Assembly: GCF_057098645.1 (NCBI RefSeq)
Contig: NZ_CM169472.1
DNA: 64,000 bases
Strand: one strand, 5' to 3'
Shown one piece after another: positions 44,412 to 59,870 of the stretch. Positions within the stretch are counted from its first letter, which is position 1. Every line of letters starts with the position of its first letter. Both the position numbers and the translations under genes were made by a program. The notes below the pieces were generated by a model that saw nothing but the letters and a program-made list of their open reading frames with translations, made no database searches and was not told the DNA's origin.

Positions 44412-45299
44412 TCAGGCTGCCAGATCATCGTTTCTGATGGAAGCATAATAAGCTTTTTCTGCTTCTGCCGGAGGGATATGACCCAGCCTTCCCAGCAATC
44501 GTCGATTGTTATACCAGTCCACCCACGTGAGTGTGGCCAGTTCCACTTCTGCACGGTTTTTCCAGCTCTTACGGTGTATTACCTCCGCTTTGTAAAGACC
44601 ATTGATGCTCTCCGCCATCGCGTTGTCATACGAGTCACCTGTACTCCCTGTTGATGCCAGCAGTTTTGCTTCTTTTAGTCGCTCCGTATAGGCCAGTGAT
44701 ACATACTGAGAACCTTTATCACTGTGATGGACTGTGCCGGACGGCCGACGGGCCCACAACGCCTGCTCCAGTGCATCCAGCACGAATGTCGTTTCCATAG
44801 ACGATGAGACTCGCCACCCCACGATACATCCGGCAAACACATCAATGATGAACGCCACATAGACGAAGCCCTGCCATGTGCTGACGTAAGTAAAATCAGC
44901 CACCCACAGCTGGTCAGGACGTTCTGCCACGAACTGACGGTTTACGCGGTCGCCTGCGGAAACGGCTTTCCGGCTGACGGTAGTACGGACCTTTTTACCC
45001 CGGAGAACACCGGCAAGTCCCATAACCGCCATGAGACGTGCCACAGTGCATCTGGCCACTCTGATACCTTCCCGTAACAACTGACGCCAGACTTTACGCA
45101 CACCGTATACCTTGTGATTTTCATCGTATACGCGCTGTATCTCTCTCTTCAGCCAGTCATCGCGCTGAGCACGGGCACTGCGTTTATCAGGATGATGTCG
45201 CTGTTGCTGACAGTGGTAATACGTTGACGGGGCAATATGCAGTTCACTGCATACCGGTCCGACCCCGTACTGCTCACGCAGCTTATCCAGCAGCGGCAT
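44412..45299 (-). CDS. IS3-family transposase OrfB (DDE integrase core), normally expressed as an OrfAB fusion by -1 frameshift
   Basis: 295-aa ORF with DDE-domain sequence (…HHSDKGSQYVS…DNAMAESINGLYKAE…). Confidence 0.9.
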   Translation of the reverse strand: MPLLDKLREQYGVGPVCSELHIAPSTYYHCQQQRHHPDKRSARAQRDDWLKREIQRVYDENHKVYGVRKVWRQLLREGIRVARCTVARLMAVMGLAGVLRGKKVRTTVSRKAVSAGDRVNRQFVAERPDQLWVADFTYVSTWQGFVYVAFIIDVFAGCIVGWRVSSSMETTFVLDALEQALWARRPSGTVHHSDKGSQYVSLAYTERLKEAKLLASTGSTGDSYDNAMAESINGLYKAEVIHRKSWKNRAEVELATLTWVDWYNNRRLLGRLGHIPPAEAEKAYYASIRNDDLAA

Positions 45300-45625
45300 T
45301 ATTTTTTCCAGAGGCGGTCGAACTCCGCCTTCGCAAAATAAGCGGAAGCCTGGCGAAGGATATCGTTACTGCGGCGCAGTTCACGATTTTCACGTTCCAG
45401 CTCTTTCAGACGCTGACGTTCAGCGGTGGTGAGTCCACCATCACCACTCCCGGTATCCCGCTCATGCTGACGAACCCACACACGCAGAGTCTCTGGTGTA
45501 CAGCCAATCTTTGGGGCAATGGAACAAATTGCCGCCCATTGTGAGTCATATTCGCCCTGACTTTCCAGAACCATACGAACTGCCCGTTGACGGACCTCGG
45601 GGGAAAAACGTGTATTTTTAGTCAT
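45299..45625 (-). CDS. IS3-family transposase OrfA (HTH protein)
   Basis: 108-aa [36 protein letters not shown]...[36 protein letters not shown], recognised as IS629-type. Confidence 0.9.
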
Positions 45626-55155: not shown

Positions 55156-55250
55156 GGAAGATCGTCGTCTCCGGTGAGGCGGCTGGACTTCAAATCCAGT
55201 TGGGGCCGCCAGCGGTCCCGGGCAGGTTCGACTCCTGTGATCTTCCGCCA
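55156..55250 (+). tRNA. selC: tRNA-Sec (selenocysteine, anticodon UCA)
   Basis: 95-nt sequence GGAAGATCGTCGTCTCCGGTGAGGCGGCTGGACTTCAAATCCAGT...GTGATCTTCCGCCA with long variable arm, 8-bp acceptor stem and encoded CCA. Confidence 0.9.
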
Positions 55251-55412
55251 AACCTCATCCAGCCAGTTCCGAGACACTCCATAAAATCATTTATATTCAA
55301 TGCGATGAATAATCAGCTTGTCCGTAATAGTCCGAGATCATCTCCCTGAATCCGCGAAAAATATGTATAGTAATGTGTATAGATTTTTTATACGTAGTTT
55401 TCAGTTATACAC

Positions 55413-56591
55413 ATGGCCCTAACCGATATACAGATCAAACGTGCAAAACCACAAGACAAACCATACACATTAAACGATGGACAAGGTCTGTCATTGCTTA
55501 TCAATCCCGATGGCTCGAAAGGCTGGCGTTTCCGTTTCCGGTTTGCAGGGAAAGCGCGGTTAATGTCATTTGGCAGCTACGATTTAGTAAGCCTCGCAGA
55601 AGCACGTGAGAAACGCGATACGGCTCGTAAGCAGGTAGCAAACGGCATTGATCCAGTAGCAGAGCGTAAGGCTCAGAAAATTGCTCAGAAATTATCAACT
55701 GAAAACTCTTTTGAGGCCGTTAGCAGAGAATGGCATGCAGCAAAAGCAGATCGCTGGACTTTAGCTTATCGCGAAGAAATTATTAAAACATTTGAACAGG
55801 ATGTTTTTCCTTTCATTGGTAAACGGCCAATAGCTGAAATTAAACCCCTAGAACTGCTTGAAGTTCTTAAACGCATAGAAAAACGTGGAGCGTTGGAGAA
55901 AACCAGAAAAGTACGTCAACGATGCGGAGAGGTGTTTCGCTACGCGATCATCACTGGCCGCGCTGAATACAATCCAGCACCTGATTTAGCTATCGCATTA
56001 GCTGTACCGAAGCAAAAACATCATCCTTTTCTATCAGCAGAAGAACTCCCTCATTTTGTCAGAGATCTTGAGGCTTACACAGGTAGCATAATCACTAAAA
56101 ATGCAACTAAAATTGTGATGCTTACTGGAGTCAGGACACAGGAAATGCGTTTTGCCACTTGGGACGAAATTGATTTACAAAAAAAGGTATGGGAAATACC
56201 GGCCGAACGAATGAAAATGCGCCGACCACATCTTGTACCACTCTCCACTCAAGTAGTTGAAATTTTTCAACAACTCAAGCTAATCACCAAAAACTATCCA
56301 TATATTTTTATCGGCCGTAATAATCACACTAAGCCAATTTCTAAAGAAAGTGTATCCCAAGTAATAGAATTACTTGGCTATAAAGGAAGAGCTACGGGCC
56401 ACGGATTCCGCCATACAATGTCTACTATTTTGCATGAGTACGGATTTAACAGCGAATGGATAGAATTACAATTGGCTCATGTTGATAAGAATAGTATTCG
56501 AGGCACTTATAATCATGCCCAATATTTAGAAAAGAGAAGTTCTATGATGCAGTGGTACAGTGATTATATCCTTAATAGAGATAAAGCATAG
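55413..56591 (+). CDS. int: P4-family tyrosine integrase, adjacent to the tRNA-Sec 3' end
   Basis: 392-aa ORF with N-terminal arm-binding region (…AKPQDKPYTLNDGQGLSLLINPDGSKGWRFRFRFAGK…) and C-terminal catalytic residues (…HGFRHT…LAHVDKNSIRGTYNHAQY). Confidence 0.9.
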   Translation: MALTDIQIKRAKPQDKPYTLNDGQGLSLLINPDGSKGWRFRFRFAGKARLMSFGSYDLVSLAEAREKRDTARKQVANGIDPVAERKAQKIAQKLSTENSFEAVSREWHAAKADRWTLAYREEIIKTFEQDVFPFIGKRPIAEIKPLELLEVLKRIEKRGALEKTRKVRQRCGEVFRYAIITGRAEYNPAPDLAIALAVPKQKHHPFLSAEELPHFVRDLEAYTGSIITKNATKIVMLTGVRTQEMRFATWDEIDLQKKVWEIPAERMKMRRPHLVPLSTQVVEIFQQLKLITKNYPYIFIGRNNHTKPISKESVSQVIELLGYKGRATGHGFRHTMSTILHEYGFNSEWIELQLAHVDKNSIRGTYNHAQYLEKRSSMMQWYSDYILNRDKA

Positions 56592-56646
56592 AATAATAGA
56601 AGTTAATGCTGTATACTGTAAATTAACAATATAGTAAGGATTGAAA

Positions 56647-57513
56647 ATGAAGAAGACAGTACTTATAACTGATTTAGATAACACACTATTCGACTGGTTT
56701 AGCGTTTGGTATCATAGCTTTAATGCAATGCTAAATAAAGTCGTTGAGATTTCCGGTTTTTCTAAAGACGAGCTTATTGCACAGATAAAACCAATTCATC
56801 AAAAATATGGTACTGCCGAATACTCTTTTATTCTAGAAAGCATACCTCTTTTACAAGAAAAATATGGTGATAGAAACTCCATCAATTTAGTTATGGATGA
56901 TGCTATACACGCTTTCAGAAGTGAGAGAAAGAAATATCTTTCTCTGTACCCAACAGTAATGGACACTTTGAGTGTATTAAAAAGTAAAGGGTGTTATATT
57001 GTCGCGTATACTGAATCCAAAGCTTATTACTCCAATTTCCGCTTAACAAGATTAGGATTAGATGGTGTGATTGATGTCCTTTTCTCTCCTGAAGATCATG
57101 AAATCCCTGATGGTGAGAAAAAACAAGATAAATATAATCTAATGCTGACAAAGCAAGAATATACACCTATTGATGAAATTAAACCAAACCCACAACTTCT
57201 TCTGGACATAATAAAATCAATTGGTGCCACACCAGAAGAGTGTGTATATATAGGTGACAGTGAAATGAAAGATATAGAAATGGCCCAAAAAGCAAACGTA
57301 TCAGATGTTTTTGCAAGCTATGGAACGAATCATTTTGAAGAGAACAAGGAGGGATATGAATTACTCCGTGCGGTAACCCACTGGACTGATGCTGATGTTG
57401 AAAGGGAAAGAAAAATTAAAGAAAATGCCTTCGGAGCAAAACCCACATATGTAGCCAAACAATTTTCAGATATTTTGTCTTTTTTTGAATTTACAAAATT
57501 TAAAGGAAAATAG
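56647..57513 (+). CDS. HAD-superfamily phosphohydrolase (subfamily IA-like), cargo gene 1
   Basis: Track ORF 56641..57513 (TTG); first ATG gives MKKTVLITDLDNTLFDW (motif I DxDxT), later EIKPNPQ (motif III Lys) and YIGDSEMKDIEMA (motif IV GDxxxD); AT-rich; RBS aagga upstream. Confidence 0.8.
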   Translation: MKKTVLITDLDNTLFDWFSVWYHSFNAMLNKVVEISGFSKDELIAQIKPIHQKYGTAEYSFILESIPLLQEKYGDRNSINLVMDDAIHAFRSERKKYLSLYPTVMDTLSVLKSKGCYIVAYTESKAYYSNFRLTRLGLDGVIDVLFSPEDHEIPDGEKKQDKYNLMLTKQEYTPIDEIKPNPQLLLDIIKSIGATPEECVYIGDSEMKDIEMAQKANVSDVFASYGTNHFEENKEGYELLRAVTHWTDADVERERKIKENAFGAKPTYVAKQFSDILSFFEFTKFKGK

Positions 57514-57514
57514 A

Positions 57515-58147
57515 ATGAACGATCTAGAATTAAAGAAACATGATGACGCTATAAAATTAGAAAATCTCAAGTTGAAAATTGATATCTGGAAGACAGTTGT
57601 TGACGTTCAGAAACATTTTAATGATCTTGAGATGAAGGTTAGAAACTTCGGAATTTTGATCTTGTCTGCATTTATTGGTGCAATTGGTGTAAGCTTTAAT
57701 TCCGGCGCTGAATTTATAGCCTTTGGCAATCATTACTCTGTTGCTGCCATTCTTGCTTTCGGGGCATCTGTTGTTTGGTTGTTATTTTATTTTGTTGACG
57801 TTTACTGGTATCACCCATTACTTCTTGGAGCTGTAAAGAAAGGTTCAGAACTCGAAAAAGAAATTGCATCCGACATCCCAGGAATTAATCTTACAGAAAC
57901 CATAGGAAAAAGTAGCCCAAAAGATATTTTGCTCTGGAAAAATATGCATAGTACTGGAAAAGCTAACCTTTTCTACTTTGGGGTTTTAGCTGTTCTGTTA
58001 ACTATTTTTATTTCTCTACTGTGCTTTAAAGCCCCGCAAAAGACAAATCAACTAAATGAATTAAATATTAAAGCAAATTGCACTAGAAACAGTAATTACA
58101 ATGGAGTTAATTGCATTATCGCATCACAGCCAAGTGACAACAAATAG
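57515..58147 (+). CDS. Small membrane protein with three predicted TM helices, cargo gene 2
   Basis: Track ORF 57485..58147 (TTG); first ATG (MNDLELKKHDD...) lies 1 nt after the HAD stop; hydrophobic helices ILILSAFIGAIGVSF, VAAILAFGASVVWLLFYFV and LFYFGVLAVLLTIFISLLCF; AT-rich. Confidence 0.7.
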   Translation: MNDLELKKHDDAIKLENLKLKIDIWKTVVDVQKHFNDLEMKVRNFGILILSAFIGAIGVSFNSGAEFIAFGNHYSVAAILAFGASVVWLLFYFVDVYWYHPLLLGAVKKGSELEKEIASDIPGINLTETIGKSSPKDILLWKNMHSTGKANLFYFGVLAVLLTIFISLLCFKAPQKTNQLNELNIKANCTRNSNYNGVNCIIASQPSDNK

Positions 58148-58237
58148 TGCACTTTATCACTCTTTACCCCAACTGCATGTACTTACCTTGTGAGCACAGA
58201 GACGCGCTATAAATAAACACTTTACTGCTGGCGGGCG

Positions 58238-58256
58238 GTGCTTTCCCCGCCTCGCC
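58238..58256 (-). other. P2/P4-type cos site (19-nt cohesive-end sequence)
   Basis: Plus strand gtgctttccccgcctcgcc; reverse complement GGCGAGGCGGGGAAAGCAC matches the P2/P4 cohesive end as I recall it; lies between the cargo pair and psu. Confidence 0.65.
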
Positions 58257-58359
58257 CGCCCGCTTTGCAGGGCGGTTTTAATGCAGTTGCACAGTCACGC
58301 TCAGGCTGCGCCGGGAATGGCGCGGTCTGCAGAGAATGAGGCAGGAAAACGCATGCAAA

Positions 58360-58420: not shown

Positions 58421-58993
58421 TTACACAGACTGACGTGATGCCAGTTGCGCACTTTTACGCGAAAAAATCATGTTCTGCGCAGGGGTGAATTTTTCACGGC
58501 TGTCATCCACCGAAGCCGCGTCAGGCCTGAATCCGATGGTCGTTAAAATGTCGCTATCCTGTGCGGAATAATTAATTTTTTCACCCTTCGCAAGCCAGGA
58601 CAGGAGGGCTTCACGCAGGGCATCTGTGGCACGCTGTATGGCACAGTTTCGGGCAATGGCCGTCAGCTCACTGTAGCCCATCAGCTCCGGTGCCAGTGCC
58701 GCCGCCAGTGCTGTGCCGTGCTGCTGCATAAAATCATTCAGCCGATCGCGGATGCTGATGTGCTGAACGGCTTCATGCGAACGAATATAACGACCGGCGG
58801 CCTGATTCACCTGCCATTTTCTGACTTCGATAATATTGCGTAATTCGTCCAGGCGACTGACGTTTCTGCCTTCTCCTGACAGAAGCCGCAGATATTCCTG
58901 TTCGGCCGCAGCCAGCTCATTTTTGCGTTGCAGCCATGCTGCTTTGTTATTCTGACAGGTGTCAAAGGCCTGCTGTAAGGCTGTGCTTTCCAT
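58421..58993 (-). CDS. psu: P4-type polarity suppression protein (capsid decoration / Rho antagonist)
   Basis: 190-aa ORF MESTALQQAFDTCQNNKAAWLQRKNELAAAEQEY... recognised as P4 Psu; sid-delta-psu gene order. Confidence 0.85.
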   Translation of the reverse strand: MESTALQQAFDTCQNNKAAWLQRKNELAAAEQEYLRLLSGEGRNVSRLDELRNIIEVRKWQVNQAAGRYIRSHEAVQHISIRDRLNDFMQQHGTALAAALAPELMGYSELTAIARNCAIQRATDALREALLSWLAKGEKINYSAQDSDILTTIGFRPDAASVDDSREKFTPAQNMIFSRKSAQLASRQSV

Positions 58994-59066
58994 CGTTATC
59001 TCTTTCTCATCATGCTGAAGAATAAAAATACGGTGTGCGGCGACGGCCGGGGTTAACCGGCAGCCC

Positions 59067-59567
59067 TCATTCCAGACGCAGCGAATATGATTGTGTTTTT
59101 AACCGTACTGGCGGCAGTTCCTGTTTTTCATGCAGGCTTTCTGCCAGTTCGTCCGGCGTGACCGGGCGGACAATGAAGCGGTTGATGGTCTGAAGCGTTT
59201 TAAACACCAGACCACAGCCCGGATCCGTGCACACATAAAAACGCTCGGTGACTTCCTGAGACAGACGCCGCGATGTTCTTGACAGCGCAAGGCCTTTACA
59301 TCTCCGACAACAATATCCGGTAACAAGCATTCTTTTCGGGCGCTTCATGCTACCGGAGGCTGACGTCAGTGAATCGCGGTATCTCTGTTTGCCTGAAATG
59401 TATTCCATTCCTGAATCTTTACAGTCAGAGAAAAAGCTTTCACTCGCTTCAAATGTCGCAGAGCAATAAATATTCCGGCACTGTGCAATCATTATCTTGG
59501 TGCCATCGTCCATGAAATGTGCGCGACGGGTGTGAGCAACATGTCCACACGACGGGCAGTAAATCAT
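59067..59567 (-). CDS. delta: P4 Delta-type late transcription activator (two fused Ogr-like zinc-finger domains)
   Basis: 166-aa ORF with two Cys clusters (CPSCGH…CRNIYC and CCRRCKG…CTDPGC). Confidence 0.85.
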   Translation of the reverse strand: MIYCPSCGHVAHTRRAHFMDDGTKIMIAQCRNIYCSATFEASESFFSDCKDSGMEYISGKQRYRDSLTSASGSMKRPKRMLVTGYCCRRCKGLALSRTSRRLSQEVTERFYVCTDPGCGLVFKTLQTINRFIVRPVTPDELAESLHEKQELPPVRLKTQSYSLRLE

Positions 59568-59790
59568 GACAGCAGTCCTCTGGCCTTAAGCACTGCTCCC
59601 TGCTGGTCTATTTTGTCCTGCCACACCTTGCGCTGTGCCGGTGTGCCTGCCACCTCATAATCCATGTGCGGGAGTGTTGCCGCTGACAGTCCGGTCAGCC
59701 GGAGAACCGGCTCGCCGGTGAGGCTGATTTGCATCTGTTTTATTTTCTGTTCCAGCGATGATTTCACCTGCTGCGTATTCCGCTCTATTC
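59564..59790 (-). pseudogene. sid: 3' fragment of P4 sid (capsid size determination), separated from its 5' part by an IS21-family element
   Basis: ORF 59564..59842: the first ~17 codons come from the IS end, the remainder (RIERNTQQVKSSLEQKIKQMQISL…KARGLLS) is the Sid C-terminus, with a 4-bp overlap onto the delta start. Confidence 0.6.
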
Positions 59791-59870
59791 GATCACGGAT
59801 TGGCATCGAAGTCCGATCAGCGATTCGCATCCATTCGATCAACCGGGAACTTAACTTTTTCTACCGCTTT

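Follow-up and report, generated by a model that had tools for sequence, protein, structure and literature searches.

The misBC gene pair in the window (the whole 64,000-nt stretch of DNA analysed) is an already known anti-phage module, type II Metis, alias “Hydrolase + 3TM” or Rst_Hydrolase-3Tm; the genes are real, and the module is not new. The pair occupies the int-cos cargo hotspot of a P4-like satellite, and we consider it likely that it acts as a type II Metis abortive-infection module in the manner the published model proposes. The pair and its immediate flanks are organized as follows:

56497..56646, + strand: native upstream region of misB, comprising the int 3' end and an AT-rich spacer of 55 nt that carries an AAGGA ribosome-binding site
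56647..57513, + strand: misB ORF, ATG start, 288 aa (the program-made list starts at the upstream TTG 56641)
57515..58147, + strand: misC ORF, ATG start, 210 aa (the program-made list starts at TTG 57485)
58256..58275, + strand: candidate intrinsic terminator for the misBC transcript, a GC-rich hairpin with 6 GC pairs followed by TTTT, adjoining cos; a consensus match only

As described in the first-pass annotation, the two ORFs are co-oriented, AT-rich and 1 nt apart. The misB stop codon TAG (57511-57513) is followed by one base and then by the misC ATG at 57515, and AGGA-type ribosome-binding sites lie 7 nt 5' of both ATG codons. GC fractions are 0.341 and 0.346 for the two ORFs versus 0.498 for the window (34% versus 50%), 0.41 for int and 0.53 for psu. 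From the sequence layout, misB and misC form one transcription unit with translational coupling. Chance ORFs are excluded for the pair, as homologues of both proteins are found in the hundreds, with E values down to 1e-189 and 1e-135, and the MisC profile search collected 1603 cluster representatives at E≤0.001. The 56497..56646 region is, to judge from the published pFR97 construct, sufficient for expression there. A sigma-70 consensus scan of 56300-56646 on the + strand returned no site, and just imperfect -10-like hexamers are seen by eye; misB may be transcribed from a promoter inside the int 3' end or by read-through from int. Downstream, the hairpin at 58256..58275 is a plausible misBC terminator. 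Inside the misBC region, antisense ORFs of 40-83 aa were put down to chance in AT-rich DNA.

MisB is identical at 288/288 residues to protein 1 of pFR97, the HAD-plus-TM system of E. coli 2862600 that inhibits T7 (Rousset et al. 2022, Cell Host Microbe, PMC9122126), and MisC is identical at 208/210 residues to protein 2, the differences being N3D and S173A. At the nucleotide level, window positions 56497-56895 correspond to the first 399 nt of the pFR97 insert, with one mismatch, at 56793. The window's exact protein pair (WP_000754434 + WP_000998640) appears in the Table S1 catalogue of P4 hotspots of the same study (PMC9122126), and identical genes are named misB/misC in the RefSeq record of E. 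coli E6. The two-gene anti-phage module postulated from the sequence is thereby 100% / 99% identical to a validated system, and the “hydrolase + 3-TM pair” from such hotspots that the first-pass annotation mentions is this very system. Profile searches, which had been proposed as a check, agree over the full length of both proteins: PADLOC PDLC03008 matches MisB (E 6.1e-198, 654 bits, residues 1-288 on profile positions 1-288 of 288) and PDLC03009 matches MisC (E 7.5e-141, 465 bits, 1-210 of 210). The pair is rare, being found in 7 of 5426 complete E. coli genomes. As far as the published assays indicate, T7 protection is the only activity shown experimentally for the pFR97-type E. coli system, on a construct 100% / 99% identical to the window's proteins. 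In the phage panel of Rousset et al., the E. coli system blocked T7 only, and T4, also a host-DNA degrader, was not blocked (PMC9122126). According to the heatmap legend, systems other than PARIS-1 were under native promoters (PMC9122126); expression was from a low-copy plasmid, and T7 plates, unlike those of other phages, were kept at room temperature (PMC9122126).

The element that hosts misBC is a P4-like satellite integrated at selC, of which int, cos, psu, delta, a split sid, an AlpA-like gene and the RNA region were found:

55156..55250, + strand: tRNA-Sec (selC), the attL-side integration site of the satellite (ARAGORN; Rfam RF01852, 83.8 bits)
55413..56591, + strand: P4-family tyrosine integrase, int (NCBIfam NF007246, 291 bits, residues 3-391)
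58238..58256, - strand: P2/P4 cos, the 19-nt cohesive-end sequence, an exact match to GGCGAGGCGGGGAAAGCAC and the right boundary of the cargo slot
58421..58993, - strand: psu, polarity suppression protein (phrog_6366, 5.5e-101)
59067..59567, - strand: delta, a double Ogr/Delta zinc-finger transactivator of 166 aa (phrog_603 at 1e-67; NF007241 with two stretches)
59564..62960, - strand: sid, split by an IS21-family insertion into a C-terminal part (59564..59842) and an N-terminal part (62394..62960), both matched by phrog_6165
about 59772..62410: IS21-family element in sid, 100% identical to ISSso4-like istA/istB copies
63494..63760: AlpA-like gene, a P4-like satellite component
63819-63909: isrK / c4-a1b1 RNA matches (Rfam)

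The slot between int and cos/psu at tRNA-Sec lies where the first-pass annotation had placed it, delimited by the int stop at 56591, cos at 58238-58256 and psu at 58421-58993. Comparison with the satellite of E. coli E6 corroborates the setting: the 3' 32 nt of tRNA-Sec (55221-55252) are found again as attR in E6, the integrase counterpart in the 99%-identical E6 locus is annotated as a tyrosine-type recombinase, and the intact sid of E6 allowed us to locate the IS junctions and a 5-bp duplication, CCTGC. The satellite primase lies beyond the window end; the E6 satellite, which is 96-99% similar, encodes one. The cos sequence GGCGAGGCGGGGAAAGCAC also occurs within the P4 hotspot inserts cloned by Rousset et al. 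Recurrence of the pair in the same slot of other P4-like satellites, a further check that had been proposed, is borne out by a Serratia misBC homologue in another such satellite and by the exact pair in the Table S1 catalogue. For the Aeromonas and Blastochloris pairs, no integrase was found within 8 kb.

MisB is predicted to be a C1-capped HAD phosphatase, with a Rossmannoid core and a helical cap after motif I. HAD motifs I-IV (D9-x-D11-N12-T13, T122, K179 and G203-D204-S205...D209) are present and invariant in 32 homologues, and Pfam assigns PF00702 at 1.5e-14 and also PF13419. In the AlphaFold2 model (pLDDT 92.1), helices spanning residues 17-97 are inserted between strand 5-9 and strand 117-121. 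A Foldseek search of the PDB returned 261 neighbours at E≤0.001, the best 50 of which are HAD-superfamily folds or engineered proteins; the HAD folds among these include NANP/HDHD4, phosphoglycolate phosphatases and YfnB. The HAD enzyme read from the motifs is accordingly upheld by a confident fold prediction. No hydrophobic transmembrane segment was detected in MisB by a 19-residue Kyte-Doolittle scan. In E. coli PK6, the HAD encoded by a metallophosphoesterase+HAD operon, the type I arrangement, shares 40% identity with MisB (E 4e-63). We rejected an assignment of MisB as phosphoglycolate phosphatase (Gph), since NF009695 scores 46.9 bits against a cut-off of 225 and TIGR01449 38.4 against 180, and both matches are confined to residues 175-232.

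MisC, anticipated as a three-helix protein of about 210 aa with no enzymatic motif, indeed contains three hydrophobic segments at about residues 45-62, 74-95 and 153-172 (19-residue Kyte-Doolittle maxima 1.8-2.6), and searches of Pfam, NCBIfam and PHROGs gave no significant family and no transporter family match. The sole Pfam signal is a weak one to 8xMP (PF24838, E 0.07), seen at E≤0.1 in 9/33 relatives; more distant family members carry precomputed 8xMP matches, and a literature search on “8xMP” returned unrelated papers only. A profile search of PDB sequences found no related solved structure at E≤1, and all that Foldseek returned for the MisC model (AlphaFold2, pLDDT 79.8) against the PDB were coiled-coil matches without meaning, the best at E 0.31. 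The K/R distribution and the natural HAD-MisC fusions suggest that MisC resides in the inner membrane with its N-terminus and the 96-152 loop in the cytoplasm. The family signature, H34 F35 N36 D95 H100 L103 E114 I130 S134, is kept, and the family-invariant residues sit on predicted cytoplasmic segments; L103 is invariant, and L102 and L126 are also present. Identity between E. coli MisC and alphaproteobacterial and actinobacterial family members is about 33-38%, and the E. coli protein has an enterobacterial C-terminal tail with a Cys pair. One family profile joins it to alphaproteobacterial members (Bradyrhizobium L012 and Blastochloris P0392), and the motifs HFN, D..WYH.LL, E and I...S are invariant across that profile. 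With the Bradyrhizobium MisC as query, 147 relatives were found; none among the 120 matches listed is labelled Phyllobacterium.

The two genes are strictly paired across distant bacteria. A profile search of genome contigs placed misB directly upstream of misC, co-oriented, at 14/14 loci from Gamma- and Alphaproteobacteria and Actinomycetota, with Phyllobacterium absent from these 14. Natural MisB-MisC fusion proteins also exist: nine of ten longer MisC-containing proteins checked have a HAD-family match N-terminal to the MisC region and represent HAD-MisC fusions, some cut short, and in the tenth the N-terminal match is ArfA/OmpATb-like. None of these ten gives evidence of a new partner domain of MisC.

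A mechanistic framework comes from Osterman et al. (bioRxiv 10.1101/2025.11.05.686725, November 2025, unreviewed), who named the pair type II Metis with components MisB/MisC and describe the products of the E. coli 2862600 operon as MisB/MisC homologues. Their experiments on the Phyllobacterium type II system report Dam dependence, escape of T6 denA mutants and m6dAMP toxicity (10.1101/2025.11.05.686725); a MisC pocket-leucine mutant loses defence and a MisB catalytic-aspartate mutant keeps full defence (10.1101/2025.11.05.686725). In type I, MisA alone defended and purified MisB dephosphorylated m6dAMP (10.1101/2025.11.05.686725). The remark in the first-pass annotation that no mechanism had been worked out is outdated since this preprint; its guess of a nucleotide-dephosphorylating HAD and a membrane effector matches the published type II model.

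Applied to the window, the published model would work as follows. In uninfected cells, MisB, by homology an m6dAMP 5'-nucleotidase that holds MisC off, would act as a Mg2+-dependent HAD enzyme and dephosphorylate the trace N6-methyl-dAMP (m6dAMP) arising from DNA repair; with the basal m6dAMP removed, MisC would therefore stay silent and autotoxicity be prevented. Experimental evidence for this antidote step comes from a type I E. coli MisB, and homology would extend it to the window allele. Upon infection, a lytic phage such as T7 would degrade the Dam-methylated chromosome to mononucleotides, and m6dAMP would rise about 100-fold and outrun MisB. MisC, the proposed m6dAMP sensor and membrane-disrupting effector, would then bind m6dAMP in a conserved cytoplasmic pocket predicted by AlphaFold3 and disrupt the membrane, probably as an octameric pore (also an AlphaFold3 prediction), so that infection would be aborted by cell death. 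That T4 is not blocked is unexpected if host-DNA breakdown is the sole trigger; expression level could explain it.

It is unlikely, in our estimate, that the E. coli allele differs from the type II Metis prototype, either with MisB as a required, membrane-recruited co-effector or with MisC tuned to a T7-specific or non-m6dAMP cue. The natural fusions would fit the former, and such a cue would explain the lack of T4 restriction. If true, either difference would split “Metis II” into mechanistically distinct subtypes and bear on the disagreement of two preprints over the HAD role. The second of these, by Zhang et al. (bioRxiv 10.64898/2026.01.15.699771), describes the type I HAD as essential for defence and as a dNTP-to-dNDP phosphatase, which contradicts an antidote-only role. 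MisB could be a co-effector and not an antidote: under the same trigger, an activated HAD bound to or gated by MisC would dephosphorylate dNTPs or another abundant nucleotide, and both proteins would be needed. In the type I PUA-Calcineurin-HAD system of E. coli ECOR28, HAD deletion and the tested motif mutants, except T122A, abolish defence (10.64898/2026.01.15.699771), and the reported activity of this HAD, in complex with its partner, is conversion of dATP to dADP (10.64898/2026.01.15.699771). The residue numbering of that HAD (D7/D9, T122, K180, G204/D205/D210, W15/E56) nearly equals that of MisB (D9/D11, T122, K179, G203/D204/D209, W17/E58), and the MisB-MisC fusions show physical proximity of action. 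However, a MisB that scavenges the ligand beside the sensor would be just as likely to yield fusions. Moreover, in the sole type II system tested, the MisB catalytic-aspartate mutant kept full defence and the MisC mutant lost it (10.1101/2025.11.05.686725), and the type I results of Osterman et al., with MisA defending alone and purified MisB acting on m6dAMP, point the same way (10.1101/2025.11.05.686725). We regard a co-effector MisB as distinctly improbable.

Very improbable, too, is an E. coli allele triggered not by m6dAMP but by a T7-specific cue, be it a T7 protein, the shut-off of host RNA polymerase or some other nucleotide. Such a cue would explain the T7-only range, and the identity of just about 33-38% between E. 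coli MisC and alphaproteobacterial/actinobacterial members leaves room for it; yet T7 is a classic host-DNA degrader, the family-invariant MisC residues and the MisB catalytic and cap residues are all kept, and the narrow range may be quantitative, given the room-temperature T7 plates and the low-copy plasmid. Finally, a metabolic unit hitch-hiking on the satellite, with a phosphoglycolate or sugar phosphatase and a small membrane transporter or anchor, is scarcely credible: several database sources label homologues “phosphoglycolate phosphatase” and the Aeromonas and Blastochloris pairs lie without an integrase within 8 kb, but near-identical proteins are anti-T7 in published plaque assays (PMC9122126), which refutes this reading in effect, and phosphoglycolate phosphatase scores fall far under the NCBIfam curated cut-offs, the pair occupies a known defence hotspot in both the window satellite and Serratia, its GC is 34% against 50% for the host, and MisC has three helices with no transporter family match.

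As a discovery, type II Metis in the window adds little, for the module is catalogued (DefenseFinder/PADLOC-type), and its validation dates from 2022 and its mechanistic model from 2025. Its value lies in annotation: the strain is marked as a carrier of a rare defence that, on the published model, would respond not to a phage component but to an effect of infection, the methylated mononucleotides set free as the chromosome is degraded, and the P4-like satellite can move misBC between Escherichia and Salmonella. By-products for work on Metis are the strict misB-then-misC order across phyla, the HAD-MisC fusions that point to a cytoplasmic MisC N-terminus, and the T7-only range of the E. coli allele.

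Among known systems, Hydrolase + 3TM of pFR97 shares with the window the same gene pair, order, 1-nt spacing and P4 int-cos slot, and the window copy differs by two conservative MisC substitutions. The window satellite itself differs from other carriers in its backbone right of psu and in the disruption of sid by the IS21-family element. The type II Metis of Phyllobacterium sp. UNC302MFCol5.2 is likewise a two-gene operon encoding a HAD phosphatase and a three-TM protein without annotated domain, and the family-wide MisC motifs and MisB catalytic residues are kept in the window pair. However, the mechanistic experiments were all carried out on the Phyllobacterium system, whereas the E. coli allele contributes a T7 range only; the case for homology between the two is the authors' statement together with family continuity via alphaproteobacterial members. 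Type I Metis, or PUA-Calcineurin-CE + HAD (MisA-MisB), shares a MisB-type HAD (40% identity), the same psu/cos-int cargo slot of P4-like satellites (E. coli PK6) and m6dAMP as the trigger reported by both groups. In contrast, its effector is a soluble PUA-metallophosphoesterase that depletes NAD+ or dNTPs, not a membrane protein, and its gene order is effector then HAD, whereas the window pair has HAD then effector. SLATT and other small TM effectors of CBASS, Pycsar and similar systems resemble MisC in that a nucleotide binds the cytoplasmic part of a short multi-TM protein and the membrane is compromised. In the AFDB50 structure search with the MisC model, SLATT-annotated proteins come at ranks 49-50, with an E value of about 3e-8 and a TM-score of about 0.68, and SLATT Pfam models match neither MisC at E≤10 nor its 33 relatives at E≤0.1. 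Unlike CBASS/Pycsar-type effectors, which respond to a second messenger made by a dedicated cyclase, type II Metis has as its proposed ligand a breakdown product of the host DNA.

The HAD gene misB and the three-TM gene misC lie at the following place in a P4-like satellite.

Features of the misBC locus
55156..55250, tRNA-Sec, left of misB
55413..56591, P4-family integrase, left of misB
56647..57513, plus strand, misB, ATG at 56647, 288 aa, AGGA-type ribosome-binding site 7 nt upstream
57515..58147, plus strand, misC, ATG at 57515, 210 aa, AGGA-type ribosome-binding site 7 nt upstream
58238..58256, minus strand, P2/P4 cos 19-mer, right of misC
58421..58993, psu, right of cos
59067..59567, delta, double-Ogr, 166 aa, right of psu
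59564..59842 and 62394..62960, minus strand, fragments of sid, split by an insertion sequence

The TAG stop of misB ends at 57513 and misC starts at 57515, leaving 1 base between the genes. Their GC contents are 0.34 and 0.35, respectively, compared with 0.50 for the window, 0.41 for the integrase and 0.53 for psu, and an AlpA-like gene also lies on the right side of the pair. The ORF list, GC content and flanking matches agree with the first-pass annotation, which had described two co-oriented, AT-rich ORFs between a P4 integrase at tRNA-Sec and cos/psu.

This module is already known: it has been catalogued, validated and named. The misB product matches the PADLOC model PDLC03008 “Hydrolase” over 288/288 positions (654 bits), and the misC product matches PDLC03009 “Hydrolase-TM” over 210/210 positions (465 bits), so that both proteins align end to end with defence models. 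Rousset et al. 2022 (PMC9122126) list in their Table S2A the sequences of pFR97, a “Hydrolase + 3TM” plasmid whose insert derives from the E. coli 2862600 P4 locus; the HAD protein is identical to its counterpart there at all 288 residues and the membrane protein at 208 of 210 (substitutions N3D and S173A). The first 399 nt of the pFR97 insert, including the upstream region, differ from the window at 1 position, and the reverse primer site lies just past cos, so the published construct covers the entire interval described here. Tested against a panel of lambda, T4, P1, 186, CLB_P2, LF82_P8, AL505_P2 and T7, the pFR97 system protects against T7, and abortive infection was suggested (PMC9122126). 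The exact pair found here, WP_000754434 and WP_000998640, also occurs in E. coli E6 and recurs in the catalogue of P4 hotspot contents from the same study (PMC9122126). The region occurs in only 7 of 5426 complete E. coli genomes, always on the chromosome and at no less than 99.8% identity, and in 1 of these RefSeq uses the gene names misB and misC. Near-identity to pFR97, together with the two PADLOC matches, supports the earlier interpretation of the pair as a two-gene defence module.

Profile search, structure prediction and structural neighbours all assign MisB to the HAD fold. It matches PF00702 (1.5e-14) and PF13419, and its AlphaFold2 model (pLDDT 92.1) displays a Rossmannoid core with a helical C1 cap. 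A structural search returned 261 PDB neighbours at E<=0.001, the best 50 of which have folds of the HAD superfamily or are engineered proteins; NANP/HDHD4, phosphoglycolate phosphatases and the YfnB nucleotidase family come first. The catalytic motifs proposed earlier, DLDNT (residues 9-13), K179 in IKPNP and GDSEMKD (203-209), are present, with their residues invariant in 32 homologues. Annotation as a phosphoglycolate phosphatase is rejected, since the NCBIfam equivalogs score far under cut-off (46.9 versus 225). A full-length comparison gives 40% identity (E 4e-63) between MisB and the HAD protein of a metallophosphoesterase + HAD operon in E. coli PK6, and the cap residues W17, H51, E58 and Y59 are common to both.

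MisC has no significant family in Pfam, NCBIfam or PHROG, and no relative among solved structures by PDB sequence-profile and structural searches. The three hydrophobic helices that had been noticed span approximately residues 45-62, 74-95 and 153-172. In the AlphaFold2 model (pLDDT 79.8), a long N-terminal helix runs into TM1; then come a short hairpin, TM2 with a cytoplasmic helical extension, a loop and TM3, and the chain ends in a hairpin that has a Cys pair. A profile of 33 homologues retrieves 1603 cluster representatives at E<=0.001. Residues H34, F35, N36, D95, H100, L103, E114, I130 and S134 are invariant in Gamma- and Alphaproteobacteria and Actinomycetota, W25, K26, Q32, R43, W98, Y99, L102, L126, S146, K149 and Y154 are at least 85% conserved, and the window's MisC keeps all of them. 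These residues border the TM helices on the Lys/Arg-rich side, taken to be the cytoplasm. Precomputed matches to Pfam 8xMP (“octameric membrane protein”) exist in some distant members, E. coli MisC itself being a weak match, and are at least consistent with the octamer prediction for MisC.

Enterobacterial MisC proteins have a common C-terminal tail (186-203) with two conserved cysteines, C188 and C200; it forms a beta-hairpin in the model, on what is predicted to be the periplasmic side, is missing from Vibrio-type, alphaproteobacterial and actinobacterial homologues, and may be a periplasmic element stabilised by a disulfide. SLATT-domain proteins, which are predicted to form pores as effectors in nucleotide-signalling defence, occupy ranks 49-50 in the structural-neighbour list for the MisC model (E ~3e-8, TM-score ~0.68), and MisC has no sequence match to the Pfam SLATT models. 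MisC could be a distant SLATT relative or a convergent analogue.

The two genes are conserved as a pair. In 14/14 loci drawn from one-genome-per-species contigs, misC is directly preceded on its own strand by a gene for a MisB homologue (42-64% identity); these loci come from Buttiauxella, Aeromonas, Endozoicomonas, Kosakonia, Pseudocolwellia, Bradyrhizobium, Rhodospirillaceae, Nocardioides, Mycolicibacter, Nocardia and others. Single-chain proteins of ~450-640 aa with the MisC region C-terminal make up at least 16 of the best 150 MisC-family representatives, and 9 of the 10 long proteins scanned have an N-terminal HAD match. Such MisB–MisC fusions, carried by Pectobacterium brasiliense, Pantoea agglomerans, Rhizobium etli, Neolewinella, a candidate division Kazan bacterium and others (examples with an N-terminal HAD domain are the homologue-search proteins P0127, P0140, P0124, P0168, P0178 and P0188, plus AlphaFold DB entries), link the two functions and position the N-terminus of MisC on the cytoplasmic side; the available sections of the Metis preprint make no mention of natural fusions (10.1101/2025.11.05.686725). 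The pair recurs in the same slot of a P4-like satellite in Serratia marcescens, between int and ogr/delta. The Aeromonas and Blastochloris copies are chromosomal and have no integrase within 8 kb, so the module is not confined to satellites. In E. coli PK6 (L016, 4079..6534), a P4-like satellite inserted at ssrA has the metallophosphoesterase + HAD operon, which is type I Metis-like, in the corresponding psu/cos-int slot. The same arrangement, from E. coli HVH3 (pFR96), is among the tested systems that Rousset et al. tabulate in their supplement; for the HVH3 system, their main text reports no activity detected against the panel (PMC9122126).

The satellite's sid is interrupted by an IS21-family (ISSso4-like istA/istB) element of ~2.64 kb (59772..62410), 100% identical to copies from other E. 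coli genomes and flanked by an apparent 5-bp target duplication, CCTGC. Capsid-size redirection was probably lost through this disruption, and the satellite may be defective for transduction. Compared with the E. coli E6 satellite, identity is 99.1% from selC through psu, breaks after psu (58978..59445), and reaches 86.8% in delta where alignable and 96.5% past the IS; delta is a 166-aa double-Ogr protein here versus 81 aa in E6. This drop past psu suggests a mosaic backbone around a common int-misBC-cos-psu block. At 63819..63909 (plus strand), directly 3' of the AlpA-like gene and within the segment 96.5% identical to E6, Rfam matches isrK at 69 bits and, at 50 bits, the c4 antisense RNA target a1b1. 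Elsewhere in the window, Rfam matches an ALIL pseudoknot, an IS3-family frameshift element that indicates a further IS copy, at 45228..45344 (minus strand), and at 25114..25152 (minus strand) a JUMPstart element, of the kind usually found ahead of polysaccharide or LPS core operons.

According to Osterman et al. (bioRxiv, Nov 2025, 10.1101/2025.11.05.686725), type I Metis relies on MisA, a PUA-metallophosphoesterase that is activated by N6-methyl-dAMP (m6dAMP) from phage breakdown of Dam-methylated host DNA and then destroys NAD+; the type I HAD protein MisB dephosphorylates m6dAMP in vitro, and in vivo clears basal m6dAMP, averting autotoxicity. Type II combines MisB with MisC, a three-TM protein without annotated domain, and the E. 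coli 2862600 operon is explicitly cited there as encoding MisB/MisC homologues. For Phyllobacterium MisB–MisC, the same preprint reports that deleting dam from the host removes defence, that T6 denA mutants escape, that external m6dAMP arrests growth, that mutating a conserved pocket leucine of MisC abolishes defence and that a MisB catalytic mutant retains it; AlphaFold3 places m6dAMP in a cytoplasmic MisC pocket and predicts an octameric ring. Zhang et al. confirm the m6-dAMP trigger for the type I arrangement, and find its HAD essential for defence, with dATP-to-dADP activity inside a filament (bioRxiv 10.64898/2026.01.15.699771). The preprints conflict, one describing a dispensable m6dAMP-removing antidote and the other an essential dNTP-to-dNDP co-effector, so the HAD role is disputed for type I; for type II it has been tested in one system only, and neither preprint's HAD experiments used the E. 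coli MisB of the present locus.

The published type II Metis model most likely fits the module best. MisB and MisC would be co-produced via translational coupling, with MisB holding basal m6dAMP low; T7 would degrade the Dam-methylated chromosome, and the resulting m6dAMP would swamp MisB and bind the cytoplasmic face of MisC, whereupon ligand-bound MisC would breach the membrane and abort infection. For the E. coli allele itself, what stands as shown is the published anti-T7 protection, along with the features read from its sequence and the conservation described above; by homology we infer m6dAMP as its ligand, its Dam dependence and the antidote role of its MisB, and the MisC pocket and pore are predictions from models. 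The main discrepancies are the conflicting accounts of the HAD enzyme and the range of the E. coli system, which is T7 only although T4 was in the panel (PMC9122126). That the E. coli allele is mechanistically unlike the prototype, or that its MisB acts as a co-effector, appears unlikely to us. The preferred reading is the published type II Metis model, with which the first-pass guess of a HAD enzyme acting on a nucleotide and a membrane protein acting as effector agrees well.
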